NCBI RefSeq assembly: GCF_003019035.1 | Contig: NZ_CP027447.1 | Reading direction: 5' to 3' (one strand) | From: Escherichia coli | GTDB taxonomy: Bacteria; Pseudomonadota; Gammaproteobacteria; Enterobacterales; Enterobacteriaceae | Length of the DNA stretch: 64,000 nucleotides | In this document: in pieces, positions 1,968-53,179 of the stretch | Position numbering within the stretch: the stretch's first letter is position 1 | How the letters are laid out: every line of letters starts with the position of its first letter | The notes under the pieces: generated by a model | Databases searched by the model: none | The model's input: the letters and a program-made list of their open reading frames with translations, nothing else | Told to the model about the DNA's origin: nothing | Translations under genes and position numbers: made by a program

Positions 1968-2091
1968 AATAGTGCTTTTTATTAAGAGTTCTACTCCTGT
2001 TCCGGACTGCTCACGCCACAGTATTAGGCATATCCTATATAGCCCCTGGTGAGAGTCACCAGTTCCTTGATTAAATAAAATGGAGTTTTAC

Positions 2092-2553: not shown

Positions 2554-2593
2554 TCTGTCGGCGGCCATGTTTCGCATGGCCGCCATACCCGTC

Positions 2594-3064: not shown

Positions 3065-3110
3065 GAGGCCTTCAGGTGTTGATGAGGCAAAAAGCCATTT
3101 TAGCAGTCTT

Positions 3111-3830: not shown

Positions 3831-5512
3831 GCCTCGTCCCTCCATGGTAGTCGTAACGTTATTCGGGTGTAACTATCAGGCTCACAGGCGACGCTTATCC
3901 CATAGTCATCGCCAAACCGTTCACGTAAACGCTTATCCACCAGATTCATCCCCAGCCCACTGGCATTGGTTACCGGTTGATACAAACCGGCATTGTCTTC
4001 GATCTCCAGCATCAAATGTTGCCCCTCACGTCGGGCGCTGATTGCCACTCGCCCTGTATCCAGCAGTTGTGATGTCCCATGTTTAATGGCGTTTTCCACT
4101 ATCGGTTGCAGGGTAAACGCGGGCAATTGCTGCTGGGATAATTCTTGCGGAATAGCAATGTTGACCTGCAACCGCGACTGGAAGCGCGCCTTTTCAATTT
4201 GCAGATAAGCGTTCACATGTTCAATTTCGTCGGCGAGAGTAACAAACTCCGAAGGCCGCTTTAAGTTTTTGCGGAAAAAAGTGGAAAGATACTGCACCAG
4301 CTGGCTGGCCTGTTCGCTGTCGCGGCGGATCACCGCTTTAATGGTGTTAAGCGCATTAAACAAAAAATGGGGATTCACCTGGGCGTGAAGCAGTTTGATC
4401 TCTGACTGGGTGAGCATCGCTTTTTGCCGCTCATATTGCCCGGCGAGGATCTGCGCCGAAAGCAGTTGCGCAATCCCCTCACCCAGCGTGCGATTGATTG
4501 AACTGAATAAACGGTTTTTGGCTTCATACAATTTGATGGTACCCATCACTCGCTGATTTTCACCACGCAACGGAATGACCAGCGTCGACCCCAGTTTGCA
4601 TTGCGGATGCAAAGAGCAACGGTAAGGCACTTCGTTGCCATCAGCGTAGACCACTTCACCGGTTTCAATCGCTTTTAAGGTGTAAGTCGAAGAAATCGGT
4701 TTGCCGGGTAAATGGTGGTCGTCACCAATTCCGGTAAAGGCCAGCAATTTCTCTCGATCGGTAATCGCGACTGCACCAATATCCAGCTCCTGATACAGCA
4801 CCTGTGCCACTTTCATGCTGTTCACTTCGTTAAACCCCTGACGCAAAATGCCTTCCGTCGAGGCCGCCACTTTCAGCGCAGTGGCAGAAAAAGCTGAAGT
4901 GTATTTTTCAAACATCGCGCGTTTATCGAGCAATATACGCATAAACAGTGCCGCGCCGACGGTATTGGTGACCATCATTGGCGCAGCAATATTACTCACC
5001 AGACGCACCGCATCTTCATAAGGTCGGGCGATCGCCAGGATGATCAACATTTGCACCATTTCAGCGACGAACGTAACGGCACCGGCGGTAATGGGGTTAA
5101 AGACTTTATCAGTGCGCCCGCGACGGATCAGGATGCTGTGTACCAGGCCGCCGAGCAATCCTTCAACGATGGTCGAGATCATGCAACTTAGCGCGGTCAT
5201 GCCCCCCATCGAATATCGATGTAACCCGCCGGTCAGACCAACCAGCCCACCGACGACCGGACCGCCGAGTAAGCCGCCCATTACCGCGCCTATCGCACGG
5301 GTATTGGCAATAGAATCGTCAATGTGCAACCCAAACCAGGTGCCCATGATGCAGAAGATGGAAAAGACGATGTAGCAGAGAAATTTATGCGGCAGACGAA
5401 CCGTGACCTGCATTAACGGTATGAATAATGGCGTTTTACTCATTAACCACGCAATGACTAAAAAAACGCACATCTGCTGAAGCAGCAGCAACACCAGATT
5501 AAAATCGTACAT
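3827..5512 (-). CDS. btsS: Sensor histidine kinase BtsS (YehU), LytS family, 561 aa
   Basis: Multi-TM N-terminus, GAF and HisKA_3/HATPase regions; ORF 3827..5527 trimmed to [10 protein letters not shown] start. Confidence 0.9.
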
Positions 5513-7348: not shown

Positions 7349-8275
7349 TTACGCCTCCACCAGCAGATCCTGAAAATGCAGCGTGCCGCAAGGCTGGCCC
7401 TGCGTGTTCATCACCGGCAGCACCTCGCATCCCCGCGCGACAAACAGGGAGAGCGCATCGCGTAGCGTCATCTCTTCTGCCAGTGCCTCACCTTCTGCAC
7501 GTTCTTCGCGACGCACGTAATCCGCCACACTACGTAACGAAAGCAGGCGCACACCCAGTTCACTACGTCCAAAAAACTGGCGAACAAAATCATTCGCCGG
7601 ACGAGTCAGCATCGTCAGCGGATTGCCCTGCTGCACCACTTCACCGTGATCCATCAATACCAGATGTTCTGCCAGCCGTAGCGCCTCATCAATATCATGA
7701 GTGACCAGCACAATAGTGCGCCCCAGCAAACGGTGAATGCGCGTCATCTCTTGTTGCAACGCGCCGCGCGTTACCGGGTCCAGTGCGCCAAAAGGTTCAT
7801 CCATCAGTAAGACTTGCGGATCGGCAGCCAGTGCGCGCGCCACTCCCACACGTTGCTGCTGACCACCGGAAAGCTGATGCGGATAACGCTCACGTAAATT
7901 TGACTCCAGCCCCAGTAGCGCCATTAATTCGTCGATACGATCGTCAATCCTCGCCCGCGACCATTTTTGTAATTGCGGCACGGTAGCGATGTTTTGCGCC
8001 ACGCTCCAGTGGGGAAACAGGCCAATAGATTGAATGGCATAGCCCATCCGGCGGCGCAACTCCAGCACTGGCAGCGAGCGAATTTCTTCTCCGGCAAAGC
8101 GGATCACGCCACTGTCATGCTCCACCAGGCGGTTAATCATTTTCAGAGTGGTGGATTTACCGGAGCCTGATGTACCAATCAGCACTGAAAAACTCCCCTC
8201 CTGAAAATTGAGATTGAGATCGTTAACGGCTTTTTGTGCGCCGAACAGTTTGCTGACATGGCTAAATTCAATCAT
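7349..8275 (-). CDS. yehX: ABC transporter ATP-binding protein YehX, 308 aa
   Basis: Walker [13 protein letters not shown] signature LSGGQQQR, C-terminal CBS-like region. Confidence 0.9.
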
Positions 8276-9425
8276 TACGTTTCACCTTCAGCAGTGCGAT
8301 AAGCAAATCGAACAGCGCGTCGGTAAGCACCGCCAGAACAATTACCGGGATCACCCCCAGCAACACTAAATCAATGGCACTGCTTAGCAGCCCCTGGAAA
8401 ACCAGCGCACCAAAACCGCCTGCGCCGATTAACGCTGCAATCACCGCCATACCTACAGTTTGCACCATCACCACCCGCAGGCTGCGCAGAAATACCGGTA
8501 ACGCCAGCGGTAACTGAACATGCAGGAATCGCTGCGCCCCGCTCATCCCCATCGCTCTGGCGCTCTCCAGCACATCGCGCGGGATCTGGTTCAAGCCGAC
8601 TACCACGCCGCGCACCAGCGGCAGCAAGGCATAGAGCACCAGCGCAATCAGTGCGGGTGTCATTCCGGTTCCTGCTATGCCCAGCTTACCCAGCCACGGA
8701 AAGGCCGTCACCAGCGCGGCAAGCGGCGCAATCAACAGGCCAAAGAGCGCCACCGAAGGCACGGTCTGAATGACATTGAGTAGCGAAAAAATCGCCCCCT
8801 GCCGCGCGGTGGAAAAGTAGCACCAGACGCCCAACGGCACACCAATCACTAACGCAGGCAGCACCGCACCAAACAGCAACGTCAGATGTTGCGCCAGCGC
8901 GTCATCAAACACATCCTGACGGTTGGCGTATTCTTTCATTAGCGAGAGATCGTTAAGCACGCCGGAATACAGCAACCACAGCGGAATGATGGCAATCTGC
9001 ATATGCAACAACCAGCGCCACAGCGGATGCGTGGAGATTCGTCGGATGGCATCGCTACAGGCAAGCAATGCCAGCGCCGCAGCCAGCCAGAAACCACTGC
9101 CGAGGCTGGTACGCGCCAGCGCACTGCCATTTTGCGCCAGTTGTGTCGCCGCCTTTCCAGCTCCCCACACCAGCAATACGAAGACGAATTGCGCCAGAAT
9201 GAGTGCAAAAATGCTGCCTTTTTTAGCGGGAATAACACAGGCTGTCAGCCAGGCGCAACCAACGCCCACCAGCATCCAGATCGTTTGCGGCCACAGCTGC
9301 CAGAGATGGCGCCCCTCACCCGAAACTAAACGATTAGGCGCGTAACTGATAAACGGCAGCGCCGCTGCGATTGCCGTCAGCAACAGCAGCAGCGCCAGAA
9401 CAGGATTAATACGTAGATAAGTCAC
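8268..9425 (-). CDS. yehY: ABC transporter permease YehY, 385 aa
   Basis: Polytopic permease; 8-nt overlap with yehX; synteny. Confidence 0.9.
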
Positions 9426-9431
9426 GGGAAA

Positions 9432-10349
9432 TTACTTCGTCCACCCTTTTTGTTTCAGGTAGTCGGCAGCCACTTTTTTGGCATCCAGTCCTTCAACTGC
9501 AATGCTGGCATTCAGTTGCTGCAATGTTTTTGCATCGAGGCTGGCGAAGACTGGCTGTAGCCACTGTGCCATTTGCGGATACTCCTTCAGCACCGACTCA
9601 CGCACCACTGGTGCAGGCGCGTAGATAGGCTGCACGCCTTGCGGATCGCTTAAGGTTTGCAACCCCAGTGCCGCGACCGGACCGTCAGTGCCGTAAGCCA
9701 TTGCGGCATTAACGCCAGAAGTTTGCTGGGCAGCGGCCTTGATCGTTACCGCCGTGTCGCCACCAGCCAGTGACAGCAACTGATCCTGACCGAGCTTAAA
9801 GCCATAGGCTTTTTCAAAGGCGGGTAACGCATCGGCGCGTTCGATAAACTCTGCTGAGGCAGCCAGTTTGAAGGTGCCACCCTCTTTCAGATAACGACTC
9901 AGGTCAGCAAGCGAAGTGAGTTTGTTTTTCTCTGCCACATCCTGACGCACGGCGATGGTCCAGGTGTTATTTGCAGGCGCGGGCGTCAGCCAGATTAACT
10001 TGTTTTGCTCTGCATCGAGTTTTTTGACTTTCTCATAGCCTTGCTGCGCGTTTTTCCATGCCGTATCGTTTTCATCTTTAAAGAAAAACGCGCCATTGCC
10101 AGTATATTCCGGATAGATATCCAGCTCACCAGAAGTGATCGCCCCGCGCACTACGGGAGTCGTTCCCAATTGCACTTTATTTACCGTAGGAACGCCGTGA
10201 CTTTCCAGCACCTGCAAAATGATATTGCCGAGCAGCGCGCCTTCGGTATCGATTTTTGAACCGACTTTAACGGGGGAAGCCGCGTGCAGCGGCAGGCTCA
10301 CGGCTGCCAACAAAACCAGTGAACCTGCCCAGACCTTTGAGAGTGGCAT
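9432..10349 (-). CDS. osmF: Periplasmic substrate-binding protein OsmF (YehZ), 305 aa
   Basis: Signal peptide then glycine-betaine-binding-like fold; operon with yehYXW. Confidence 0.9.
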   Translation of the reverse strand: MPLSKVWAGSLVLLAAVSLPLHAASPVKVGSKIDTEGALLGNIILQVLESHGVPTVNKVQLGTTPVVRGAITSGELDIYPEYTGNGAFFFKDENDTAWKNAQQGYEKVKKLDAEQNKLIWLTPAPANNTWTIAVRQDVAEKNKLTSLADLSRYLKEGGTFKLAASAEFIERADALPAFEKAYGFKLGQDQLLSLAGGDTAVTIKAAAQQTSGVNAAMAYGTDGPVAALGLQTLSDPQGVQPIYAPAPVVRESVLKEYPQMAQWLQPVFASLDAKTLQQLNASIAVEGLDAKKVAADYLKQKGWTK

Positions 10350-19863: not shown

Positions 19864-19967
19864 AAATCAGATATGGCATATAAGTTGTCAGGTCAGTAAC
19901 TCGATATTTTGTGTACTTGATTTACAAACAGCTCCGGTGTTGGTGGCGTCAAAATCGCTGAAGCGTT

Positions 19968-20140
19968 CCCCGAAGGCCGGGGCAGCCCACATGGATGTGG
20001 GCTGAGGGCGCGTCTTACAAGGACGTTACCTCGCGCCCGACCCGGTAGCCGAAGGGGATAAGCTGAAGGTACCGCGCAGCGGCGATTTTGTTCGCCAGAG
20101 CCCGGGGGTGCAGGGGGAGGAGGCGATTGTCCTCCCCCTG
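19968..20140. other. GC-rich, hairpin-dense intergenic element between yohP and dusC (at least four strong inverted repeats)
   Basis: Hairpins read directly: CCCCG-5nt-CGGGG (19968-19982); CAGCCCACAT-GG-ATGTGGGCTG (19983-20004); GGGCGCG-19nt-CGCGCCC (20006-20038); CAGGGGGAGGA-8nt-TCCTCCCCCTG (20111-20140). Confidence 0.4.
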
Positions 20141-20230
20141 CGCGCTCCTTGCGCCAGTGGCAATATGTGGCTTAGCTCATGAAAGGAGCGCAACAAGATG
20201 ATGAAGCTAAATAAGCGATTCATTGTCTCA

Positions 20231-27327: not shown

Positions 27328-27375
27328 CATCCGGCATTTGGCACCGAATGCCGGATGCAGCGCATCCGGCAATAC
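27328..27375. repeat. REP-like hairpin between convergent preA and mglC (CATCCGGCATT-8nt-AATGCCGGATG plus GCAGCGCATCCGGCAA)
   Basis: 11-bp inverted repeat with REP-like GCCGGATG core. Confidence 0.5.
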
Positions 27376-34519: not shown

Positions 34520-35389
<870 letters not shown>

Positions 35390-35788
35390 TCACCAGCAAA
35401 GGGTATTTTCCAGCGCCGTACTAAAATCACGGTCATCTGCGTGCGGGGCTGGAGACTTCTGGTTTAAATCTGTCAGTTGCTGGCGCACCTGAAGTCGCCC
35501 TGCCCCTTCGCCGCTGGAAGAATTTTCGTTGAAATTACGCATTTCAGCTTCGAACAATATGGCATCGAGATTTTGCAATTTATTCAGCGCGCGCAGAAGA
35601 GAAATGAGGGTATCAAGATTTAAACTTCCTCCCTTTTCAATCCGCTTGACCGTTGCAATGCCCACCAATGCACGATCGGCTAACTGCTGTTGGGTCAATG
35701 ATAATGAGATCCGCGTTTCTTTAATGCGTGCACATAGAGATAAAATAATTTCGTTGTTATTCATCGTATTATATTTCATCTTACGCAT
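35390..35788 (-). CDS. XRE-family helix-turn-helix transcriptional regulator (accessory island gene); start codon uncertain among three in-frame ATGs (35788, 35779, 35764)
   Basis: HTH_XRE signature LTQQQLADRALVGIATVKRIEKG; stop abuts yeiG stop with no intergenic gap; overlaps the 3' end of the upstream dehydratase gene. Confidence 0.7.
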   Translation of the reverse strand: MRKMKYNTMNNNEIILSLCARIKETRISLSLTQQQLADRALVGIATVKRIEKGGSLNLDTLISLLRALNKLQNLDAILFEAEMRNFNENSSSGEGAGRLQVRQQLTDLNQKSPAPHADDRDFSTALENTLCW

Positions 35789-37133
35789 CCTTTTTTCTTG
35801 GCTGCAATTTGCTCAGACAGCCATGATAAGTTTCACGGTATTTAGCGCTCATATCCTTTCCGGTTTCATACATCGCGGAAATTATCTCATCCAGCGTAAT
35901 GCACGGCTCGCTTATGCGACTCAACGCCATCGTCGTTGCGTTGATAGCTTTCACAGCTGAAATAGCATTTCGTTCAATACAAGGAATTTGTACCTGCCCG
36001 CCAACTGGATCACAGGTCAAACCTAAATGGTGTTCCATTGCAATTTCTGCCGCGCTGAGTACCTGAGTCACTGACCCGCCCATAAGTTCTGCTAATCCTG
36101 CTGCCGCCATTGAACTGGCAACGCCTATTTCTCCCTGACATCCAACTTCAGACCCCAGAATAGAGGCATTTTTTTTGAACAGAATGGCGATGGCACCGGC
36201 GGTCAGAAAAAAGCGAGTAACGGAGTAAGTATCAAGTTCATGAATGAATTTATCATACCAACACAGTACGGCCGGGATAATACCGCTCGCGCCGTTGGTG
36301 GGTGCTGTCACGACGCGTCCACCAGCAGCATTTTCTTCGCTCACCGCAATGGCAAAAGTATTAACCCAATTGATCGCAGTCAGGAAGTCATTAGTAAACC
36401 CCTTTGCCTGCAACGATTTATATAAAGCACAGGCACGACGGTTAACCTGATACGGACCTGGAAGTAATCCTTCTGTATGCATCCCGCGATAGACCGCATC
36501 CTTCATTACTTCCCATTTTTTATTGAAATCGTCATGCAAAAAACCAGATGTCTGGCAGTGCAGTTCGTTTTTCATCATTAATGCCGCGACAGATAATCCG
36601 TTTTGCTGACAAAGTTTTAATAATTCGTTTGCGTTCTGGAATTCAAAAGGATGTGGAGTGACTGATGGAGGAATAATCGCCTCTCCTGCTTTTAGCACTT
36701 GACCGTCGCCGATAGAAAACCAGGTTTCTTCATAAAGTGTAAACCAGTCATCTCTGGCACGAAATGTCATCGCATAAGGGTGCCCCGGATGCGCCTGTGG
36801 ATTAGAAAGAATGGATACACTGACGTTGACACCAGGCATAACTTCCAGCGTCGCCTCAGTTTCTGCACGCCTGATGGCGGACATTTCCATGCGGATATCA
36901 ACACTGTCAGGTAAGTGGCCTTGCAAACCGAGATAAATCGCCACATCAACATTATGGCACTTGCGGCTTAATGACAGTGCACCATAAAGTTCGACATCAA
37001 TTTTCCGCAACAAAGGTAACATTTCTCGCTGTTTCAATTGTGAGACAAAATTATAAGCCGCACGCATTGGCCCGACAGTGCGGGAACTGGATGGACCTAT
37101 AACGATTTTGAATATATCTACGCAGCTTTCCAT
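35781..37133 (-). CDS. Fe-S L-serine dehydratase paralogue (SdaA/SdaB/TdcG family), about 450 aa (accessory island gene)
   Basis: Aligns by eye along its length with E. coli SdaA ([62 protein letters not shown]); start set to ATG at 37133 ([17 protein letters not shown]) rather than the upstream TTG. Confidence 0.85.
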
Positions 37134-37188
37134 TTTTGTAAATAATTCCTTCAACGTTGAAAACTCGTTATTCGTTATATCCTAGCAA

Positions 37189-37260
37189 AGATATCAAAAA
37201 TGGTACTTTTAGTATCTTATTATTTCAAGGTATCAAAAAAAGTACTTTTTTATCTTTTAT
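37189..37260. promoter_or_regulatory. Two direct-repeat copies of an approximately 27-bp palindrome-containing motif (TATCAAAAA..GTACTTTT..TATCTT) in the divergent island promoter; putative operator
   Basis: Copy 1 around 37191-37219, copy 2 around 37230-37258; copy 2 contains the perfect 16-bp palindrome AAAAAAGTACTTTTTT. Confidence 0.4.
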
Positions 37261-37343
37261 TTAACATTCACAACTGTGATTGTCAGATACATCAGCCTCT
37301 ACGAAATCTTATTATAATCATCGCAGATAAAAAGGAGCGGTAA

Positions 37344-38231
37344 ATGACGATTATTTATTTCTTGTCGCCAACAGGCATCGACATCACCCAAAAATGTCTG
37401 AAAGATTATCTGCAACATTTAAAGATTTCCCCCTCGGTGTTTTCGTTAACAACGAATTACAGTAGGCAAATAAATAGAGAGTATCTAAAGCTAGTATTAC
37501 CAAATGATGTTACCAACCCTGCTTTTTATGCTGGTTTACGTCACCGTGCTGATCATCATCATTTTGATTTTTTCCGCAAACCTACGGACTTACCGGCTGA
37601 GGGAATTATTGCCTTTGATATGGATTCCACCTTTGTTGAAGAGGAAGGTGTTGATGAAATAGCCCGTAGACTCGGCATCTCTGAAAAAATCACCGCACTG
37701 ACCCGTGAAGCGATGGAAGGGAAAATCGATTTTGATACCAGTTTTACCCGGCGAATTGCCATGCTTAAAGGAACGCATAAAGATATATTGCATCAAGTTT
37801 GTGAACAGATGACTCTTTCACCAGGTCTTGAAACTATTCTTCCCATACTAAAAGAAAAAGGATTCAAGACGGCAATTATATCTGGAGGTTTGGATATTTT
37901 TACTGAGCGATTGAAGGAAAAATATCAACTTGATTTTGCATTTTCTAACTCTGTGCGCATTAAGGAAGATCTGTTAACTGATACAATTACCTTACCTATT
38001 ATGAATGCAGAAAAGAAAAAGCAAACCCTGATAAATTTAGCGACAGAGTTAGCTATCTGCCGTGAAAACATCATTGCCTGCGGAGATGGCGCTAATGATA
38101 TTCCTATGCTTCTGCATGCCGGGAATGGCGTGGCATGGAAAGCAAAACCTAAAACCCGGGAAAAAGTTGCTAACCAGATTAATTTTAATGGTTTCGAGTC
38201 GCTTCTCTTTTTTATAGAAGAAAAATTATAG
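37344..38231 (+). CDS. HAD-superfamily phosphoserine-phosphatase-like protein (SerB paralogue), 295 aa (accessory island gene)
   Basis: HAD motifs DMDSTF (I), SGG (II), GDGANDIPML (III); collinear with SerB catalytic domain; AAGGAG Shine-Dalgarno 8 nt upstream of ATG. Confidence 0.8.
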   Translation: MTIIYFLSPTGIDITQKCLKDYLQHLKISPSVFSLTTNYSRQINREYLKLVLPNDVTNPAFYAGLRHRADHHHFDFFRKPTDLPAEGIIAFDMDSTFVEEEGVDEIARRLGISEKITALTREAMEGKIDFDTSFTRRIAMLKGTHKDILHQVCEQMTLSPGLETILPILKEKGFKTAIISGGLDIFTERLKEKYQLDFAFSNSVRIKEDLLTDTITLPIMNAEKKKQTLINLATELAICRENIIACGDGANDIPMLLHAGNGVAWKAKPKTREKVANQINFNGFESLLFFIEEKL

Positions 38232-38263
38232 CGCCATAAAGTTTACAGAAAAGGAAACTCACG

Positions 38264-39586
38264 ATGAGCTTGAAAAAATTTATTTTCAGCCAGGCCGACC
38301 AACCGGTGGTCAAACGGCAAGAAGAAGTTGATCATACTTATAAAAAATTTCGCATTGAAATCATCACCTCTGTATTTATCTCTTATGCCGTATTTTATTT
38401 AACCCGCAAGAATTTCTCTGCGGCCATGCCGGCGATGTTAACGGATACGTCATTAACTGCACAAGATTTCGCTATCATGTCGTCGGTCTTTTACATTCTT
38501 TATGGCTCCATGAAGTTTGTAGGTGGCATGTTAGTTGATAAAATTAATCCACGCGCGATGACCGGCCCCGTACTTATTGGCGTCGGTATTGTTAATATTC
38601 TTTTCGGTTTTTCAGACAGCGTTGCTGCGTTCTATATCCTGTACAGCCTTAATGCTATTCTTCAGGGTACCAGTTTTCCGCCGATGGCAAAAATTATGGC
38701 CTCGTGGTTCTCTAAAAATGAACGCGGGCGCTGGTGGGCAGTTGTTGAAGCGGCGCATAATATTGGCGGTAGTCTTGCGCCTCTCCTGACAAGCTTTGCT
38801 ATTGCTTTTAGTGGCAGCTGGAAGATGGGCTTTTATGTTCCGGGTGTAATCTCACTGATTATGGGGATTGTTGCCTTGTTTACGATAAAAGATCGTCCCG
38901 GCACGCTCGGTTTGCCTAACGTCGGTAAGTGGCGCAACGACCCGACAGAACTTGCACAAGTTAAAGCAAGTCCGGTTGATCTCAGTTTTTGGCAAATATT
39001 CGTTAAATATATTCTTACCAACCCATTAGTTTGGCTCATTATCCTCGGGGATATGTCGGTCTATATTGCACGCACCATCCTCAATGACTGGCCACAAATT
39101 TATTATTCTCAGGTTCATAACTGGAGCCTGATTAAAGCGAACTCCATTATATCCTGGTTTGAAGCAGGTGGACTTGCTGGGGGATTACTGGCGGGATACT
39201 TGTCCGATTTCATGTTTAAAAGTAACCGCTGGATGACCGGATTAATCTTTGCCATCGCTTTATGTATTTGCATCGTTCTCGTACCGCTGGTGCAGGACGT
39301 CTCCTATACATTAACGGCTATTCTGTTTACAATCATGGGGTTTGCATTGTATGGACCGCATATGTTATTCGCTGTCGGGTGTCTTGATGTTACGCATAAA
39401 GATGCGGCAGGTTCCATTACTGGATTCAGGGGCTTGTTTAGTTATTTAGGCGCGGCAATGGCAGGGCTTCCAGTTATTATGGTGAAAAACAGTTGGGAAT
39501 GGTCAGGAGTGTATATTTACGCCGTCATTACCATTTTGCTGACAACATTTTCACTGGCCTTACTGGCAAAATTTCATCGGTTATAA
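38264..39586 (+). CDS. MFS transporter of the organophosphate:phosphate antiporter (OPA) family, GlpT/UhpT/PgtP-like, 440 aa (accessory island gene)
   Basis: 12-TM MFS; OPA-family signatures (YLTRKNFSAAMP, WFSKNERGRWW, LYGPHMLFAVG, AAGSITGFRGLFSYLGA) resembling GlpT; Shine-Dalgarno AAGGA upstream. Confidence 0.8.
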   Translation: MSLKKFIFSQADQPVVKRQEEVDHTYKKFRIEIITSVFISYAVFYLTRKNFSAAMPAMLTDTSLTAQDFAIMSSVFYILYGSMKFVGGMLVDKINPRAMTGPVLIGVGIVNILFGFSDSVAAFYILYSLNAILQGTSFPPMAKIMASWFSKNERGRWWAVVEAAHNIGGSLAPLLTSFAIAFSGSWKMGFYVPGVISLIMGIVALFTIKDRPGTLGLPNVGKWRNDPTELAQVKASPVDLSFWQIFVKYILTNPLVWLIILGDMSVYIARTILNDWPQIYYSQVHNWSLIKANSIISWFEAGGLAGGLLAGYLSDFMFKSNRWMTGLIFAIALCICIVLVPLVQDVSYTLTAILFTIMGFALYGPHMLFAVGCLDVTHKDAAGSITGFRGLFSYLGAAMAGLPVIMVKNSWEWSGVYIYAVITILLTTFSLALLAKFHRL

Positions 39587-39610
39587 ATCCAGAAACGAAT
39601 TTCTGGCATT

Positions 39611-39637
39611 ATGCCCGGCGGGATCCGCGCCGGGCAT
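39611..39637. terminator. Hairpin ATGCCCGGCG-7nt-CGCCGGGCAT between island transporter gene and cirA (convergent), likely bidirectional terminator
   Basis: 10-bp GC-rich perfect inverted repeat; a second weaker hairpin CCAGAAA-CGAA-TTTCTGG lies at 39589-39606. Confidence 0.5.
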
Positions 39638-39644
39638 CTTCTCA

Positions 39645-41636
39645 TCAGAAGCGATAATCCACTGCCATAAAGTAACGACGTCCGTCTTCGTTATAGCTGT
39701 AGTCGTCACGACTGAGATCCTTGTCGCCAAGGTTCAGCACGCCTGCGCGCAGTTTGACGTCTTTAGTTACCTGCCAGGCCGCACCGGTATTCCAGATGGT
39801 ATAACCGCCCGGTGTTTTAGCCGTCGCGCTGTCGGCGCGTTTCTGCCCGGTATAGTGACCAGAAACATAGAATGACCAGTCTTCCAGCGCCAGCGGTTTC
39901 CAGTCCAGCGTACCGTTAGCAGTATGGAACGGCAGATCGGATAGCGGTTTGTTTTCGCCGTTGCTGACATCACGACCATCGTTGTAGGTGTAGTTGAGTG
40001 ACAGTTTCCATTCATCGTTGAACGGAATTTTCAGCTCGGTTTCCACGCCCTGAATACGTGCTTTGTTAACGTTGTAGTAGCTGAATACCGGTATGCGCCG
40101 TCCGTTAGCGCCCGTCTCAAAACCGACAAAGTTTTGGTAGCCCGGTGCAGCATTGACATCAGACGTACGGCTGATGCTGATGCGATCTTTCACATCGTTA
40201 CGGAAAACGGTAACGCTGGACTCCACCCCTTCCAGCCAGCCGTCTTCACCCATGTAGTAAAGCCCCAGCTCCCAACTTTCGCTGGTTTCTGGTTTCAGAT
40301 CCGGGCTACCCACAATCTTACATGCGCCACGGCAGGAATTGCTCGTCCAGTCAGGGCTAAGTTGCAACAGAGAAGGTGCTTTAAATGCCGTCGCCCAGCC
40401 CCCTTTCACCGTTACGGTGTCGGTGGCGTTATAAACCAGGTAGGCACGCGGACTCCAGTGTTCACCGTAGGTTTCGTGATCGTCCATACGCACGCCGGTC
40501 GTCAGCGCCAGCGGCTCGAAGATCCGCCATTCATCTTCCACAAACAGCGCGTACTGGCTGGCAGACGTTTTGGAGCTGGTTCCCCCGGTCAGGTTCACCG
40601 CATCGCTAAGTTTGTCGTGACGCCATTCACCGCCAACCGTGAGAAACTGATTAATCGCCGTCAGCGGCAACGTGTATTTGCCGTCGACCGTATTGCTTTC
40701 GGAAGTTATCGGGCTGCTGTTGCCAGGGTTTTTGTTCTCGACTTTCTCACCGTAGTATTTCAGTTCGCTGGTGCCGTAATCCCAACGCCCATTATGGCTG
40801 ACGGAGTAGTTCTGGCGTTCCAGGCGGTTTTTGTCCAGCGAGTCGGAATCACGATCCTGACGGTCGAAACCGTATCCGGCAGTAAAATCGTGATTTTGAT
40901 TCGGTGTCCAGGCAAATTCGACATTGCCGTCGCGGCTGGAGAATCCTTCAATACGCGGCGTTTCTCCGGTATCGGTGGTCGTTGAGTTTTGCGGGTCATC
41001 CTTTTCACGTTTTGCCAGGCTGCCGTAAGCTTTCATTCCCAGCACACCATCAATTAATGGTCCACTGGTAAAGAACTGACCGTTATAGGTATCACCGCGA
41101 TCGCGATGTTCCTGAATGGTGGTATCGACGGTAACGGTACCCGACCATTTCTGACCGATTTTTTTGGTGATGATATTCACTACACCGCCGAGTGCATCGG
41201 AACCGTACAGCGACGACATCGGGCCACGGACCACTTCAATACGTTCGATGGAATCGACCGGGATCCAGTTCAGATCGAAATCATTGTGGCGGAAGACGGC
41301 ATTGCGGGAGTTAACGCGTTTACCGTCGACAAGAATCAGGGTGTAGCTGCTGTCCAGACCACGAATACTAACGCCCTTACGGTTATCCCCTTCGTTCGTC
41401 AGTTGTACGCCAGGCACTTCTTTGAGCACATCCTTCAGATTCTGTACCGGTTTTCGCTGCAGGTCTTCCTGGGTAATGACGCTGATACTGGCGGGTGCAT
41501 CTTTAAGGTTTTGCTCAACGGAAGATGCAGTGACAACCATCGTTTCGCCATCATCATCGACCGCTAACACAGGCCATGCACAAGAAATAGCGGACAAACA
41601 CAGCCCGACCCGTACGAAAGGGTTCAACCTAAACAT
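39645..41636 (-). CDS. cirA: TonB-dependent catecholate siderophore / colicin I receptor CirA, 663 aa
   Basis: Signal peptide [25 protein letters not shown], TonB box, C-terminal aromatic residue; length. Confidence 0.93.
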
Positions 41637-46565: not shown

Positions 46566-47654
46566 ATGAACAACCGGGAGAAGGAGATCCTTGCAATATT
46601 AAGGCGTAACCCGCTGATTCAGCAGAACGAAATTGCGGATATGCTGCAAATCAGCCGTTCGCGTGTTGCAGCGCATATTATGGATTTAATGCGCAAAGGT
46701 CGGATTAAAGGCAAAGGTTACATTCTCACCGAGCAGGAATACTGCGTAGTGGTGGGGACAATCAATATGGATATTCGCGGGATGGCGGATATCCGTTACC
46801 CGCAAGCGGCTTCTCATCCCGGTACCATTCATTGCTCGGCAGGCGGCGTTGGACGCAATATCGCCCACAATCTGGCGCTGTTAGGCCGCGACGTCCATTT
46901 GCTTTCAGTGATTGGCGATGACTTTTATGGCGAAATGCTCCTGGAAGAAACGCGCCGCGCCGGCGTGAATGTCTCCGGCTGCGTTCGTTTACATGGTCAA
47001 AGCACATCGACGTATCTGGCAATTGCCAATCGAGACGATCAAACCGTGCTGGCGATTAACGATACCCATCTGCTGGATCAGTTGACACCGCAACTACTGA
47101 ACGGGTCGCGCGATTTACTTCGTCATGCGGGCGTGGTACTGGCTGATTGCAACCTGACAGCCGAGGCGCTGGAGTGGGTCTTTACCCTCGCTGATGAAAT
47201 CCCGGTGTTTGTCGATACCGTTTCAGAATTCAAAGCGGGCAAAATCAAACACTGGCTGGCGCATATTCACACTCTGAAACCCACTTTGCCGGAGCTGGAA
47301 ATTTTATGGGGCCAGCCGATAACCCGCGATGCTGATCGTAATGCCGCAGTGAATGCGTTGCATCAGCAAGGCGTTCAGCAACTGTTTGTTTATTTGCCCG
47401 ATGAGTCTGTTTATTGCAGCCAAAAGGATGGCGAACAATTTTTGCTGACTGCGCCAGCGCATACGACGGTAGACAGTTTTGGTGCTGACGATGGTTTTAT
47501 GGCGGGCCTGGTGTATAGCTTTCTGGAAGGAAGCAGTTTCCGTGATAGTGCCCGTTTTGCGATGGCCTGCGCGGCAATTTCACGCGCCAGCGGCAGCTTA
47601 AACAACCCTACCCTGTCTGCCGATAACGCGCTTTCATTAGTGCCGATGGTGTAA
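46566..47654 (+). CDS. yeiI: PfkB-family sugar kinase with N-terminal HTH, YeiI, 362 aa
   Basis: N-terminal winged-helix then ribokinase-like fold; parallels psuK. Confidence 0.88.
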   Translation: MNNREKEILAILRRNPLIQQNEIADMLQISRSRVAAHIMDLMRKGRIKGKGYILTEQEYCVVVGTINMDIRGMADIRYPQAASHPGTIHCSAGGVGRNIAHNLALLGRDVHLLSVIGDDFYGEMLLEETRRAGVNVSGCVRLHGQSTSTYLAIANRDDQTVLAINDTHLLDQLTPQLLNGSRDLLRHAGVVLADCNLTAEALEWVFTLADEIPVFVDTVSEFKAGKIKHWLAHIHTLKPTLPELEILWGQPITRDADRNAAVNALHQQGVQQLFVYLPDESVYCSQKDGEQFLLTAPAHTTVDSFGADDGFMAGLVYSFLEGSSFRDSARFAMACAAISRASGSLNNPTLSADNALSLVPMV

Positions 47655-47662
47655 CAATCTTG

Positions 47663-47696
47663 CCGGATTCGACGCTTGACCGCGTCTTATCCGGCT
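47663..47696. repeat. REP-like palindrome between convergent yeiI and nupX
   Basis: GCCGGATTCGACGCTTGACCGCGTCTTATCCGGC, REP-like. Confidence 0.45.
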
Positions 47697-47709
47697 CATA
47701 ACTCGCGCA

Positions 47710-48960
47710 CTACGCTAAGCCAATAAAGAACCCGGCAATGGTGGCACTCATCAGGTTAGAAAGTGTCGCCGCCGCCAGCGCGCGTAAACCAAGCTGGGCG
47801 ATTTCCGGCGCGCGGTGTGGCGCAACCGCAGAAAATGCCCCCACCACCACCCCGATAGAACCAAAGTTAGCGAAACCGCACAACGCGAAGGAAATAATCG
47901 CCACGGTTTTAGCATCCAGAGTGCCAGCTGTTTGCAGATAAGGTGAGAAATTGAGGTAAGCGACAAATTCATTAATCGCCAGTTTCTGTCCAATCAAACT
48001 CCCGGCAAGATTCGCATCACTCCAGTCAACCCCCATCACCCACGCCAGTGGAGCCAACAGGTAACCTAAAATGGACTCCAGCGAGGCATGTTCAAAACCA
48101 AACCAGCCGCCAACGCCGCCGATAATACCGTTAATCAACGCAATTATTGCAACAAATGCCATCACCACTGTCGCTACACCGGCGGCGATTTTCAGCCCGG
48201 TCATTGCCCCTGTCGCAGCGGCTTCAATAATGCTTTTTGGCGGTGTTTCGGTGAAAGAGAGGTTATTAAAGGAAACCTGCGAAGATTCCGTAGCCGGACT
48301 TAACAGGCGGGCAAACAAGATCCCACCAGGGATAGCCATTAACGATGCCGCCAGCAGATATTCCACAGGCACGCCCAGTGCGGCGTAACCAATCATTGTC
48401 GAACCAGCAATCGAGGCCATCCCGCTACAAATCGCTGTAAATAATTCATTGCGATTCAGACGATCGATAAAGGGTTTGACGATTGCCGGAATTTCGTTTT
48501 GCCCGAGGAAAATGGTAGTGACCGCGACGAACGACTCGATCTTGCTGATATTTAACGCTTTCTGGAAGATACCGCCGAGAATGCGAATTAAGATCCCCAT
48601 CACACCGATGTAGTAGAGAATACTCACCAGTGCTGTAACGAAGATAATTGCCGGTAATACCCTGAAACCAAAGATAAATCCTGCACCATCAAATAAGGTG
48701 TCCATTTTCGGTCCGACCAGAGAACCGAAGATAAATGCGCTACCTGCATCGCTGTACGCCATCACTTTATGCACGCCAAAAGCGACTTTTTCTGCGACCC
48801 AACGCCCTGGCGGTAACCAAAGCATAATGCCGCCAATCACGACCTGTAACACTAACGCCGCGCCAACGGTACGCAGGCTGATCTTCTTCTTGTTTACTGA
48901 CAGCAAAAACGCAATTGCCAGCAGTACCACCATTCCCAGAACACTTCTCATGACATCCAT
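47710..48960 (-). CDS. nupX: NupC-family (CNT) nucleoside transporter NupX, 416 aa
   Basis: CNT family; close paralogue of the psuT ORF in this window. Confidence 0.88.
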   Translation of the reverse strand: MDVMRSVLGMVVLLAIAFLLSVNKKKISLRTVGAALVLQVVIGGIMLWLPPGRWVAEKVAFGVHKVMAYSDAGSAFIFGSLVGPKMDTLFDGAGFIFGFRVLPAIIFVTALVSILYYIGVMGILIRILGGIFQKALNISKIESFVAVTTIFLGQNEIPAIVKPFIDRLNRNELFTAICSGMASIAGSTMIGYAALGVPVEYLLAASLMAIPGGILFARLLSPATESSQVSFNNLSFTETPPKSIIEAAATGAMTGLKIAAGVATVVMAFVAIIALINGIIGGVGGWFGFEHASLESILGYLLAPLAWVMGVDWSDANLAGSLIGQKLAINEFVAYLNFSPYLQTAGTLDAKTVAIISFALCGFANFGSIGVVVGAFSAVAPHRAPEIAQLGLRALAAATLSNLMSATIAGFFIGLA

Positions 48961-49059
48961 AGTTATTATCTCTTCATGTCATTTTGGGCGACGGCTTTCT
49001 GCCCATCAGAAATAGCCAGGCTTGCATCTTGCGATACCGGCCCGGCTTGATATCACCAC

Positions 49060-50001
49060 TTAGTGGGTTTTGATGTAGCCGCGCACGCACTCTTCGACTA
49101 ATCCCCAGAACCAGTCGGTATCAATAGTGATGCCGACTTTGGTATTGGCGGGCTTGCCAAGAACGCCCAGCTCGTCGCAGACGGTACGCCCGTAACAAGG
49201 GCCACTGTTGACGTCCACTTCGACGTACATCTCCTGGGTTTTAATGCCATCGGGGTTAATCAGATAACCGATACAGGTGGCGTCATGTACCGGGCCGCCA
49301 GCCAGACCGTAGTTTTCGAACTGCGTTTTGAGAGTGAAGTTCATGATGTCGCTGAACAGCTCTCCGGCGGGGCCGCCTGCTCTTTCCATCCGTGCAATCA
49401 CGTCCGGAGTGCAAACGGTCTGGTTGGTGAGATCGAGGCCCATCATCACTAATGGAACGCCGGAGGTGAACACCACGCGTGCGGCTTCCGGGTCAGCAAA
49501 AATGTTGAACTCGGCAGATGGGGTGAAGTTGCCAGTACCGTAAGCGCCGCCCATCAGTACAATTTCACGGATTTTTGGCAAGATTGCGGGTTGCATACGC
49601 ATTGCCACCGCGATATTTGAAAGCGGACCAACCGGCACCAGAGTGATATCGCCATCGCTTGCCATCAGGGTATCGATGATATATTTCACCGCATGGGTGT
49701 TTTCTGCCTGACGAGTCAGCGGTTCGAATACCGGACCATCCAGCCCGGTTTCACCGTGAATATTATCGGCAACGATTTGTTGACGCATAATGGGTTGCGG
49801 CATCCCCGCATAAACCGGAACATTAATCTCCAGTTTCTGGCAAACATTCAGGCCATTAATTAATGTTTTATCGAGGGTTTGATTCCCCGCCACAATAGTG
49901 ATACCTAATAAATCAATCGCCGGATGTTTCGCTGCCATCATCATTGCAATAGCATCATCATGACCCGGATCACAATCCAGAATAATTTTTCTCTTTTCCA
50001 T
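49060..50001 (-). CDS. rihB: Pyrimidine-specific ribonucleoside hydrolase RihB, 313 aa
   Basis: Nucleoside hydrolase DxDxxxDD N-terminal motif ([15 protein letters not shown]). Confidence 0.9.
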
Positions 50002-50169
50002 TGTTTATTTCCTCTGTTTCCAGTTGCGTTATTTTTTCTACAGCAAAGAAAATTCGACCGGGCCGATGATTGAATCTTAACAACAGCGTACGTATGCTAA
50101 ATATGAGAAATCTCATAGCGGATAAATATCGTGAAAGAAATCCACAATAATGATCTTAAGCAGCAATTG

Positions 50170-50829
50170 ATGAGTGAATCCGCGTTTAAGGATTGCTTTT
50201 CAACGGATGTTTCAGCCGATACGCGGCTGTTTCATTTTTTAGCGCGTGACTACATAGTGCAGGAAGGGCAACAGCCGTCCTGGCTGTTTTACCTGACGCG
50301 AGGCCGCGCCAGGCTTTACGCCACGCTTGCTAATGGTCGCGTGTCGCTGATCGATTTCTTTGCCGCCCCCTGTTTTATTGGTGAGATTGAGTTAATCGAT
50401 AAAGACCATGAACCGCGTGCGGTACAGGCTATTGAAGAGTGTTGGTGCCTTGCGCTCCCTATGAAACATTACCGCCCGCTGTTATTAAACGACACGCTAT
50501 TTTTACGAAAACTCTGCGTTACTTTAAGCCATAAAAATTATCGCAATATTGTTTCTTTAACTCAGAATCAATCATTTCCGTTAGTGAATCGCCTGGCAGC
50601 ATTTATATTACTCTCACAAGAAGGTGATCTTTATCACGAAAAGCATACGCAAGCGGCAGAGTATTTAGGCGTTTCTTATCGACATCTTTTATATGTTCTC
50701 GCGCAATTCATTCACGACGGTTTATTAATTAAAAGCAAGAAAGGATATCTAATTAAAAACAGAAAGCAGTTGTCAGGACTGGCGCTGGAGATGGACCCGG
50801 AGAATAAATTCTCCGGGATGATGCAGTAA
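50170..50829 (+). CDS. yeiL: CRP/FNR-family regulator YeiL, 219 aa
   Basis: cNMP-binding-like domain and C-terminal HTH; ORF-track start 50131 is a GTG, trimmed to ATG ([10 protein letters not shown]). Confidence 0.8.
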
Positions 50830-50852
50830 AAAATAATCTGCAATAGCGCGAT

Positions 50853-50888
50853 TGCCGGATGCAACGCTTAATAAGGCGTACATCCGGC
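50853..50888. repeat. REP-like palindrome between convergent yeiL and psuT
   Basis: GCCGGATGCAACGCTTAATAAGGCGTACATCCGGC, REP-like. Confidence 0.45.
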
Positions 50889-50896
50889 AATGAAAC

Positions 50897-52147
50897 TCAA
50901 GCTAAACCAATAAAGAACCCGGCAATGGTCGCGCTCATCAGGTTGGAAAGCGTTGCTGCTGCCAGCGCCCGTAAACCAAGCTGAGCGATTTCCGGTGCGC
51001 GTTTTGGCGAAATAGCCGAAAATGCCCCAACGACAACACCGATAGAACCAAAGTTAGCAAAACCACAAAGCGCAAAGGAGATAATCGCAATGGTTTTCAC
51101 TTCCAGTGTACCACCCGTTTGCAGATACGGAGAGAAACTCAGGTAAGCGACAAATTCGTTTATCGCCAGTTTCTGCCCAATCAGGCTACCGGCAAGGTTA
51201 GCATCGCTCCAGTCTACTCCCATGATCCACGCCAGTGGCGCCAGCACATAGCCAAAAATACTTTCCAGAGAAGCATTGGCGAAACCAAACCAGCCGCCAA
51301 TTCCGCCGATAATGCCGTTGATCAGCGCAATAATTGCAACAAACGCCATTACCACCGTCGCTACACCAGCGGCGATTTTCAGCCCGGTCATTGCACCGCT
51401 CGCCGCCGCTTCGATAAAGCTTTTTGGCGGCGTTTCGCTGAACGACAGGTTTTCAAATGTCACCTGTGAAGGCTCGGTTGCTGGGCTAAGAATACGCGCA
51501 AACAAAATACCGCCGGGGATAGCCATCAGCGATGCCGCTAACAGGTAGTCAATCGGCACGCCCATTCCGGCATAACCAATCATCATCGAACCGGCAATGG
51601 ACGCCATCCCGCTACAAATTGCGGTAAACAACTCGTTGCGATTCATGCGATCGATAAACGGTTTTACGATCGCCGGGATCTCGTTTTGCCCGAGGAAAAT
51701 AGTAGTGACTGCAACAAAAGACTCGATTTTGCTGATGTTAAGGGCTTTCTGAAAAATGCTGCCAAGAATACGAATCAGCAGCCCCATCACGCCAATGTAG
51801 TACAGCAGACTGATGAGCGCAGTAACGAAGATAATCGCCGGAAGTACGCGAAAGGCGAAGATAAAACCCGCACCGTCAAACAAGACATCCATTTTCGGCC
51901 CAACCAGCGAACCAAAAATGAAGGCGCTACCGGCATCACTGTAAGACATCACTTTATGAACGCCTAATGCCGCCTGTTCTACTGCCCATTTTCCCGGTGG
52001 GAAGTAGAGCATGATGCCACCAATAGCAATTTGCAGCAGCAGCGCGGCTCCAACCGTGCGCAAACTGATGCTCTTTTTATTCACTGACAACAGAAATGCT
52101 ATTGCCAGTAACACCACCATCCCCACAACACTTCTCATTATATCCAT
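50897..52147 (-). CDS. psuT: NupC-family nucleoside (putative pseudouridine) transporter PsuT (YeiM), 416 aa
   Basis: CNT family, paralogue of nupX; operon with psuG and psuK. Confidence 0.88.
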   Translation of the reverse strand: MDIMRSVVGMVVLLAIAFLLSVNKKSISLRTVGAALLLQIAIGGIMLYFPPGKWAVEQAALGVHKVMSYSDAGSAFIFGSLVGPKMDVLFDGAGFIFAFRVLPAIIFVTALISLLYYIGVMGLLIRILGSIFQKALNISKIESFVAVTTIFLGQNEIPAIVKPFIDRMNRNELFTAICSGMASIAGSMMIGYAGMGVPIDYLLAASLMAIPGGILFARILSPATEPSQVTFENLSFSETPPKSFIEAAASGAMTGLKIAAGVATVVMAFVAIIALINGIIGGIGGWFGFANASLESIFGYVLAPLAWIMGVDWSDANLAGSLIGQKLAINEFVAYLSFSPYLQTGGTLEVKTIAIISFALCGFANFGSIGVVVGAFSAISPKRAPEIAQLGLRALAAATLSNLMSATIAGFFIGLA

Positions 52148-52240
52148 AATGATTTTCCCTTCATGCCAGTAAACCCGGCGTCAGCGCCAGGTTTTGGTAT
52201 GTATGATCAGTACGGGCGACGGCTTTCTGCCCGCCAGAAA

Positions 52241-53179
52241 TTAACCCGCGAGACGCTGGTATTCTTTGGCAATTTCGCTCGCCAGAATGGCGTTGTTGAA
52301 CACCAGTTGGATGTTGGATTTCAGGCTGTCACCGCCAGTCAGTTCAGCAACACGAGCCAGCAGGAACGGTGTGCTTTCTTTACCAATAACGCCCTGCTCT
52401 TCGGCTTCGGCGACGGCTTGATCTATGGCTGCATTGATAGATTCCTCCGGCATCGCAAACTGCTCCGGGATCGGATTCGCCACTACCAGGCCGCCGTTCA
52501 AACCGGTTTGCCATTTCACTGCCATTGCACGAGCGATTTCCGTGGCACTATCAAGGCGAATGCTGACGTCAAACGGGCTGGTACGGCAGAAAAACGCAGG
52601 CAGCGCTTTTGTCTGATAGCCAATTAACGGCACACCGAAGGTTTCTAAATATTCTGTTGTTAATCCTAAATCGAGAATAGATTTTGCACCGGCACAAACA
52701 ACGGTGACATTAGTATTTGCCAGTTCTTGCAAATCGGCAGAAATATCGAAGGTATGTTCCGCCCCGCGATGCACACCACCAATTCCCCCGGTGGCAAATA
52801 CTTTAATTCCGGCAAGCGCCGCAATAATCATCGTTGAAGCCACAGTGGTTGCGCCATTTTTTCCGGCGGCAACGACAAAAGGTAAATCGCGACGACTAAC
52901 TTTGGTCACGTTATGCCCTTCGCGACCCAGCAATTCAATTTCTTCTTTGCTTAAACCCACTTTCATCACGCCGCCAATAATGGCGATAGTGGCAGGTACA
53001 GCGCCCTGTTTACGAATAGTTCCTTCAACTTCAATTGCGGTCTGGGCATTTTGTGGGAACGGCATCCCGTGAGAAATAATGGTCGATTCCAGCGCCACAA
53101 CCGGTTTTTTGTTTTTTAAAGCGTCCTGCACTTCCGGGGAAATTTGTAATAATTCAGGGGAAATTTTTAATTCAGACAT
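52241..53179 (-). CDS. psuG: Pseudouridine-5'-phosphate glycosidase PsuG (YeiN), 312 aa
   Basis: Indigoidine synthase A-like family; overlaps psuK by 13 nt. Confidence 0.9.
   Translation of the reverse strand: MSELKISPELLQISPEVQDALKNKKPVVALESTIISHGMPFPQNAQTAIEVEGTIRKQGAVPATIAIIGGVMKVGLSKEEIELLGREGHNVTKVSRRDLPFVVAAGKNGATTVASTMIIAALAGIKVFATGGIGGVHRGAEHTFDISADLQELANTNVTVVCAGAKSILDLGLTTEYLETFGVPLIGYQTKALPAFFCRTSPFDVSIRLDSATEIARAMAVKWQTGLNGGLVVANPIPEQFAMPEESINAAIDQAVAEAEEQGVIGKESTPFLLARVAELTGGDSLKSNIQLVFNNAILASEIAKEYQRLAG

Follow-up and report, generated by a model that had tools for sequence, protein, structure and literature searches.

A four-gene block between yeiG and cirA of some Escherichia coli genomes as a candidate module for the use of external O-phospho-L-serine

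The stretch of Escherichia coli DNA analyzed here (64,000 nucleotides of contig NZ_CP027447.1, assembly GCF_003019035.1; hereafter the window) carries between yeiG and cirA a segment of 4,245 bp (35383-39627) that is absent from E. coli K-12. Based on a comparative analysis of its four genes, we propose that the segment is probably a self-contained module for using external O-phospho-L-serine. An antiporter of the organophosphate:phosphate antiporter (OPA) family would bring phosphoserine in and let cytoplasmic phosphate out. A SerB-type phosphatase (SerB2) would then split phosphoserine into L-serine and phosphate, and the phosphate thus released would regenerate the counter-substrate of the antiporter. 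Finally, an oxygen-labile Fe-S L-serine dehydratase paralogue (Sda2) would convert L-serine into pyruvate and ammonia, the Fe-S nature of this enzyme indicating use under low oxygen. A small helix-turn-helix (HTH) regulator of the XRE family, probably a repressor, would control both divergent promoters through two 16-bp boxes until a signal is received. We infer the cargo, the direction of flux, the box-binding protein and the inducer from sequence comparisons. An earlier note, made from the window alone, had suggested a phosphoserine pathway, and the suggestion now gains comparative support from gene linkage, from the site residues of the phosphatase and from an acidic residue in the transporter.

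The four genes are intact and form two divergent units, flanked by yeiG (34553-35389, plus strand) and cirA (39645-41636, minus strand). In the minus-strand unit the dehydratase gene (35781-37133, 450 aa) comes first and the XRE-type HTH gene (35390-35779, 129 aa) second; in the plus-strand unit the SerB-type phosphatase gene (37344-38231, 295 aa) is followed by the gene for the OPA transporter (38264-39586, 440 aa), a member of the major facilitator superfamily (MFS). E. coli SCU-301 (NZ_CP051751.1) matches the window at 100% identity, and for this genome the Prokaryotic Genome Annotation Pipeline (PGAP) gives the same four genes. Both this annotation and the open reading frames of the window agree with the gene positions given in the earlier note, and profile and structure-sequence matches bear out its family assignments for all four proteins. 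The overlap that it described between the dehydratase and regulator genes does not exist, because the regulator gene, placed by the conserved N-terminus MK(Y/F)xTM of its product, begins 1 nt past the dehydratase stop. The AT-richness and the absence from K-12, both also claimed there, are clear. The GC content of the segment is 0.430 compared to 0.515 for the remaining window and lies below that of every other 4.2-kb stretch of it (minimum 0.472; z = -4.7). In K-12, yeiG (plus strand) and cirA (minus strand) are convergent with stops 31 bp apart and nothing of the segment between them. The limits of the segment follow from the alignment with this empty site, from base composition and from a survey of genomes.

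By family model and substrate-site residues, SerB2 is predicted to be a phosphoserine phosphatase. It consists of an N-terminal domain of ~85 aa and a HAD-IB catalytic domain (residues 88-290), and it scores 208.5 bits with the SerB equivalog model TIGR00338 (cut-off 144.15) and 203 bits, under the cut-off of 413, with the E. coli-type SerB model. Nearly its full length matches PDB entry 4EZE (E = 8.6e-118), deposited only as 'haloacid dehalogenase-like hydrolase', the sequence of which is almost identical to the Salmonella orthologue of SerB2. The D92-M-D94-S-T nucleophile motif, S180-G181, the conserved Lys and GDGAND are all present. Nine transporter-linked phosphatases have an overall identity of only 36-63%; nonetheless, the residues equivalent to D11, D13, E20, M43, F49, R56, S99, G100, K144 and GDGAND of M. 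jannaschii phosphoserine phosphatase are invariant in all nine. Four of these residues (E20, R56, M43 and F49) correspond to E101, R137, M124 and F130 of SerB2, likewise invariant in 9/9 linked copies; in the M. jannaschii enzyme we take E20 to bind the amine, R56 the carboxylate and the Met/Phe pair the side chain of serine. SerB2 thus has the same catalytic and phosphoserine-binding residues as SerB and M. jannaschii phosphoserine phosphatase (PDB 1F5S, 3N28), whereas it differs from housekeeping serB in being a second copy, with an N-terminal domain of its own and an operon shared with the transporter. Co-transcription with the transporter indicates that its role would be catabolic, not biosynthetic. 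With a ratio of nonsynonymous to synonymous substitution rates (dN/dS) of 0.17-0.25 and 57-81% identity between genera, serB2 is the fastest-evolving of the four genes.

The transporter, with a dN/dS of 0.03-0.06, is the most strongly constrained. It matches GlpT (PDB 1PW4; E = 4e-68, residues 18-426) and Pfam MFS_1, in agreement with homology to MFS proteins of 12 transmembrane helices. GlpT residues R45, K46, K80, H165, R269, D274 and E299 are all conserved; in GlpT, R45, R269, K80 and H165 bind phosphate, and their equivalents in the transporter (R48, R270, K84 and H165) are kept across its clade. This clade is narrow, its members being at least 61% identical and the next relatives at most 55%, and it includes relatives in Gallibacterium (77-81%) and Photobacterium (69%). 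What sets it apart is the pair of residues at positions 161-162, beside H165: Trp161-Asn162 is replaced by Val/Leu-Glu in 13/13 clade members (Val161-Glu162 here) and in 0/71 other relatives. In 67 of those 71, including E. coli UhpC, UhpT and GlpT as well as the relatives at 54-55% identity, the pair is Trp-Asn, and the 54-55% relatives have no SerB neighbour. The loss of a bulky Trp and the gain of a carboxylate beside the substrate-binding His would suit the requirements of an amine-bearing cargo. Compared to GlpT, UhpT and PgtP (OPA family, TC 2.A.1.4), the protein has the same MFS fold and the same phosphate-site Arg pair, Lys, His, Asp and Glu; it too is expected to swap internal phosphate for an organophosphate, and its gene likewise stands beside one for a cargo-handling enzyme. 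In contrast to them, it has Val161-Glu162 instead of Trp-Asn, and its linked regulator is a small XRE protein rather than GlpR, UhpABC or PgtABC. A separate observation concerns a 48% relative (L059:6001-9254) with Trp-Asp at 161-162, whose gene is followed by one for a HAD-IIA-type phosphatase and adjoins an EutH gene; this may be another uptake pair for an amine organophosphate, such as phosphoethanolamine.

Sda2 scores 543.7 bits with TIGR00720 (cut-off 345.1) and has fused Pfam domains SDH_beta and SDH_alpha. The alignment with the Legionella L-serine dehydratase (PDB 4RQO) shows that its three 4Fe-4S cluster Cys residues are kept (GCQGE, LTCDP and IPCIERN). The fused domains and cluster Cys residues are shared with the type 2 Fe-S L-serine dehydratases SdaA, SdaB, TdcG and the Legionella enzyme, whereas Sda2 differs from all of them in having Arg for the signature His, RKCHNVD where the family has GKGHGTD, and no C-terminal Cys. 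These signature changes are common only to two sister lineages, each linked to the same HTH family. The dN/dS of sda2 is 0.10-0.13.

Linkage of the genes extends beyond the synteny with yeiG. In a rearranged form of the module (L050 and L051), the HAD, transporter and HTH genes lie on one strand, convergent with the dehydratase gene, and the proteins are 71% (OPA), 50% (Sda), 50% (HAD) and 53% (HTH) identical to those of the window. L050 is an 8.6-kb Salmonella enterica contig in which the module (1168-5129) is flanked by an autotransporter gene and phage lysis/tail-like genes, and therefore this version may be mobile. On the dehydratase side, a search for relatives of Sda2 revealed that its two nearest lineages (~50% identity) both carry the signature Arg. 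One of them is the dehydratase of the rearranged module; the gene of the other, in L049, is followed by a gene for an HTH protein of the same type. On the transporter side, pairs of transporter and SerB-type phosphatase genes are found in Photobacterium lutimaris (L004) and in the metagenome contigs L045 and L046, with a fragment in L047. Because the pair in L049 and the pairs in L004, L045 and L046 occur separately, the two sub-modules (transporter plus phosphatase; dehydratase plus regulator) recur independently and are joined in enterobacteria. Transporter relatives with Trp-Asn and without a SerB neighbour are present in L006, L057, Edwardsiella and P. angustum.

The regulator contains an HTH domain of the Cro/C1 type (residues 17-66; Pfam HTH_3 match over residues 19-66, E = 4e-9), followed by a linker of disordered appearance and, at the C-terminus, the conserved motif LENTLCW, with variants YENVVIW and QNNVSW. 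Its matches in NCBIfam are generic and below threshold only. The family is restricted to Escherichia, Citrobacter, Salmonella and Scandinavium, its gene is always downstream of or beside an Arg-type dehydratase gene, and its dN/dS is 0.07-0.2. In Salmonella the regulator is STM2195/t0660, and transposon insertions in STM2195 are mildly under-represented (percentile 15-17) in S. Typhimurium grown in LB (PMC3487940), a deficit that fits, if weakly, a repressor costly to lose. A defence or toxin-antitoxin role of the HTH-enzyme pair was considered and discarded: PADLOC gave no matches, and scores with antitoxin models are far under cut-off.

The control region between sda2 and serB2 (37134-37343, GC content 0.28) was analyzed by phylogenetic footprinting, in which the 210-bp intergenic region was aligned from 13 species. 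Two copies of RTATCAAAAAYRRTAC, 39 bp apart, are conserved in 13/13 loci; in the window they appear on the plus strand as operator-like box 1 (ATATCAAAAATGGTAC, 37191-37206) and box 2 (GTATCAAAAAAAGTAC, 37230-37245), and they also show up as a 23-nt direct repeat (D1). The motif has just these two matches within the 64-kb window, compared to 0.33 expected. The promoter scan predicts an sda2 promoter on the minus strand (TTGAAA-17-TACCAT, 37228 to 37200), the -10 of which is overlapped by box 1. On the serB2 side there is a TTCACA-AC-TGTGAT element (37267-37280, plus strand), of which CTGTGAT is invariant, ~32 nt upstream of the -10 (TATAAT, 37313-37318) of the serB2-transporter operon; its ribosome-binding site is AGGAG (37333-37337), and we could not recognize a -35 for this promoter. 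The boxes, the TTCACA-AC-TGTGAT element, the -10 and the ribosome-binding site are conserved in an otherwise diverged AT-rich spacer. In L050, the 120 bp upstream of the HAD-transporter-HTH operon hold two related boxes. Conservation of the boxes, the position of box 1 over the sda2 -10 and the related copies upstream of the rearranged operon together suggest that the linked HTH protein may be a repressor acting at the two boxes. No Rfam element, whether riboswitch or leader RNA, was found in the control region at E <= 1, and a check by eye for Pho boxes and CRP sites revealed only the TGTGA half-site as conserved. A CTGTGAT-N3-CTGTGAT repeat in Salmonella resembles a Pho box, but its spacing and position are wrong and it is not conserved in E. 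coli. L050 carries, in addition, a near-perfect operator-like box (ATATCAAAAAAAGTAC, 7395-7410), ~200 bp upstream of a DUF1441 gene and 2.3 kb from the module.

Of 5,426 complete E. coli genomes, 89 carry the segment, 85 of them at full length and always as a single chromosomal copy; yeiG itself is found in 5,424. The yeiG-cirA junction is thus variable in E. coli, and in this sense the term 'accessory island', used in the earlier note, stands. The block does behave as an island in its deviant GC content (0.43 versus 0.515) and patchy spread, but its divergence is not discordant with that of flanking core genes when Salmonella and Escherichia whittamii are compared. The identical four-gene order occurs behind yeiG in Salmonella (enterica, arizonae and diarizonae), in nine Citrobacter loci and in E. 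whittamii. Between E. coli and Salmonella, identity of third codon positions at conserved residues is 48-50% for the island and 48-63% for flanking genes; between E. coli and E. whittamii, synonymous divergence (dS) is 0.24-0.59 for the island and 0.49-0.56 for yeiG and cirA. The island sequences of four carrier lineages of E. coli diverge from one another by 1-7%, as much as their flanks or more. We also found no integrase, transposase, tRNA target or flanking direct repeats at the segment. Since synteny with yeiG extends across genera and synonymous divergence matches that of the flanks, the simplest reading is that the block is not a recent import but a syntenic locus of old standing in the Escherichia-Salmonella-Citrobacter lineage, lost by most E. 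coli and retained by at least four or five divergent E. coli lineages. A far older acquisition from a GC-poor donor is possible, because in each genus that carries it the module has a lower GC content than its flanks and relatives of the transporter occur in Gallibacterium and Photobacterium. Erosion of the locus is evidently ongoing, as IS1A insertions with partial deletions hit the dehydratase or phosphatase region in a few E. coli (NZ_CP073939.1, NZ_CP172867.1). A dN/dS of 0.03-0.25 over all four genes indicates purifying selection. More generally, low GC content and occurrence in <2% of E. coli genomes need not signal a recent import, as such a block may instead be ancestral and in the course of being lost.

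Three other scenarios for the history of the segment were dismissed. A recent import that brought flanking DNA along is unsupported, as identity of the window to K-12 is uniformly 97-99% on either side. Simple precise excision in K-12 is unsupported too, since ~14 nt of the empty site have no counterpart in the island. Apparent plasmid-borne copies turned out to be mis-assigned pieces of the Salmonella chromosome that include fghA/yeiG. At the left junction, homology with K-12 stops at 35382, within the final two codons of yeiG, which therefore differ from those of K-12. At 35387-35392 the stop of yeiG (TAA) directly touches that of the HTH gene, which runs toward it (TCA when read on the plus strand), with no spacer or terminator between them; in Salmonella, yeiG and the HTH gene overlap by 12 nt. 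It is possible that yeiG and the sda2-HTH operon affect each other by convergent read-through or through antisense transcripts. At the right end, sequence reading and the alignment with K-12 reveal two hairpins between the stops of the transporter gene and cirA (39589-39635). The first is CCAGAAA-CGAA-TTTCTGG (39589-39606). The second, GCCCGGCG...CGCCGGGC (39613-39635), is a lengthened form of the K-12 yeiG/cirA terminator and contains the right junction, homology with K-12 restarting at 39628 inside this shared hairpin.

Two further observations concern the neighbouring genes. Among island-positive E. coli, yeiG (34553-35389; loci L053-L055) is a local hot spot of diversity: its pairwise identity is 90.2-96.8%, where neighbouring genes reach 96-99%, and several C-termini occur (YLQE, YLRE, YLQK or YLLK), a pattern suggestive of recombination or of relaxed constraint at the junction. 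In most Citrobacter loci (L008-L010, L012, L013, L019 and L021; ~7700-9700), cirA downstream of the transporter gene is replaced by another TonB-dependent receptor gene on the opposite strand, whose product is ~35% identical to CirA, so that in Citrobacter the position of the module is conserved only on the yeiG side.

Several points weigh against the use of phosphoserine by this module. The transporter reaches no curated subfamily cut-off, and its sequence therefore cannot name its cargo: scores are 426.4 bits for UhpC (NF008661, cut-off 564) and 343 for the PgtP subfamily (408), and with the equivalog models 278 for GlpT (633), 197 for UhpT (497) and 216 for PgtP (750). The role that we assume for residues 161 and 162 in the GlpT cavity comes from the GlpT literature and not from a structure examined here. 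The Gallibacterium transporter, at 77-81% identity, has no adjacent partner genes, and a gene resembling glycerate or phosphoglycerate dehydrogenases (2-hydroxyacid dehydrogenases) adjoins the relatives in L045, L048 and L006. Such a neighbour could offer serine a second outlet, through hydroxypyruvate, or it could be a sign of another cargo, for example a phospho-hydroxy acid. Sda2 represents an atypical lineage, for which specificity toward L-serine is an assumption. Its signature GPSSSHT has become GPSSSRT, with Arg fixed in 13/13 orthologues, and among 111 family representatives this position is His in 108, Arg in 2 and Phe in 1. Sda2 also ends in a basic tail without the C-terminal Cys, a residue found among the last four in 89 of the 111 representatives and acting in the Legionella enzyme as both the fourth iron ligand and an intrinsic inhibitor (PMC12647591). 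Finally, a literature search for phosphoserine transporters returned no described phosphoserine antiporter, and searches with the Salmonella tags of the block (STM2195-2198, STM14_2708-2711, STY) and with 4EZE returned incidental mentions and no functional study.

Some of these points would be explained by the main rival, in which the architecture is the same and the cargo is another amine- or carboxylate-bearing organophosphate: phosphothreonine, phospho-D-serine, phosphoethanolamine, or a phospho-hydroxy acid such as 3-phosphoglycerate, with the enzymes acting on it or only loosely coupled. Scores under every named-subfamily cut-off, the dehydrogenase-like genes beside L048, L045 and L006 and the His-to-Arg change of Sda2, which could mean a different substrate, are all compatible with it, and the Asp162 relative with its different HAD phosphatase and EutH neighbour hints that an acidic residue at 162 may mark amine cargos generally. 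However, every linked phosphatase keeps both the Glu for the amine and the Arg for the carboxylate, SerB2 passes the SerB equivalog cut-off, and 3-phosphoglycerate enters glycolysis with no need of a phosphatase or a deaminase. Moreover, L006, where the dehydrogenase gene is the only neighbour, has Trp-Asn rather than Val-Glu and therefore falls outside the functional clade. We consider a different cargo rather unlikely.

OPA antiporters are reversible exchangers. The module might accordingly handle endogenous pools of serine and phosphoserine, as an overflow or an alternative biosynthetic branch, with the transporter exporting or exchanging internal phosphoserine. The genome already carries serB, sdaA, sdaB and tdcG, so that the enzymes here are extra isozymes, and the deficit of STM2195 insertions in LB would fit a costly internal drain when the module is derepressed. 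Yet an exporter paired with a phosphatase and a deaminase has no obvious logic, whereas a transporter, a hydrolase, a catabolic enzyme and a local repressor make up the usual layout for nutrient use (glpT, uhpT, dsdXA), and it is the transporter that is most constrained; this explanation strikes us as improbable. That 98% of complete E. coli genomes have lost the block, that IS1 disrupts it in a few carriers and that SerB2 evolves fastest would be in line with a decaying remnant that has no current function in E. coli, but 85 genomes keep all four frames intact, with the dN/dS of 0.03-0.25 given above, and the promoter, ribosome-binding site and operator-like boxes are kept across genera, which makes decay very improbable. 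Least credible is a role of the MFS protein as a membrane sensor of the UhpC kind in place of a carrier. The UhpC subfamily model does give its best NCBIfam score, but the 426 bits stay below the cut-off, neither the block nor the genes next to it include a UhpB-type kinase or UhpA-type regulator in any genus examined (cf. uhpABCT of K-12), and the nearest outgroup proteins are likewise without uhpAB neighbours. UhpC-type sensing was rejected for this lack of kinase and regulator partners.

Returning to phosphoserine as the cargo, a fuller scenario can be offered, though only tentatively and with somewhat less than even confidence. The Val161-Glu162 clade might be the first dedicated phosphoserine:phosphate antiporter, working with a phosphatase that recycles the counter-ion and with a separate, co-evolving pair of Arg-type tail-less dehydratase and XRE protein, in which the EN(T/V)(L/V)xW motif of the regulator possibly reports enzyme or substrate status by direct contact between proteins. 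Such a system would give Salmonella, Citrobacter and some E. coli access to host- or food-derived phosphoserine (from phosphoproteins, e.g., casein and phosvitin) in the anaerobic gut.

Automatic annotation has recorded the genes of the block in thousands of genomes, and for one orthologue a structure is deposited. Salmonella tags of the block appear in tables from transposon sequencing (Tn-seq) studies (PMC3487940, PMC9308263) and one in a list of single nucleotide polymorphisms. Tn-seq mutants of Salmonella STM14_2709 were reported to be fitter under iron restriction (PMC9308263). STM14_2709, which lies in the yeiG-cirA block, is probably the dehydratase gene, and the gain in fitness would fit the cost of a Fe-S enzyme encoded near the iron-regulated cirA. 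The only described route of phosphoserine uptake that we found is the PHO-induced Phn system of E. coli (PMC4394545). PhnCDE is an ATP-binding cassette system for scavenging phosphorus during phosphate starvation, whereas the segment would pair an antiporter with serine catabolism. In its logic of a dedicated importer, a deaminase yielding pyruvate and ammonia, and local regulation, the module resembles sdaCB, tdc and dsdCXA, the last of which is also variably present among E. coli. It differs from them in that the imported species would be a phosphate ester, carried by another transporter family, the antiporters, and requiring an additional phosphatase step.

Elsewhere in the window, three differences from K-12 are worth recording. 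A 275-bp intergenic segment between dusC and yohP (19940-20213) is inverted and aligns with the opposite strand of K-12 at 88.7% identity. Between mglC and preA (27342-27375), the intergenic region of K-12 is longer by ~170 bp, probably due to a repetitive extragenic palindrome (REP)-type indel. In the region 47000-53000 (nfo-yeiI-nupX-rihB-yeiL-psuT), identity to K-12 is 90-96.7% per kb compared to 97-99.6% in the rest of the window, and two nucleoside-transporter paralogues of this region cross-match at 79%.

In summary, the design of an antiporter with dedicated enzymes is a known one, and what is new is probably the cargo. If our interpretation is correct, an amino-acid phosphate ester would be a new class of substrate for a textbook antiporter family, and the signature at positions 161-162 would explain the specificity. 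The block would then encode a catabolic route, so far uncharacterized, that belongs to the core of Salmonella and Citrobacter and is missing from laboratory E. coli. This would bear on differences in nutrient niche among gut bacteria, on genome-scale metabolic models, in which these genes count only as redundant isozymes, and on the feeding of phosphoserine in genetic-code-expansion work.

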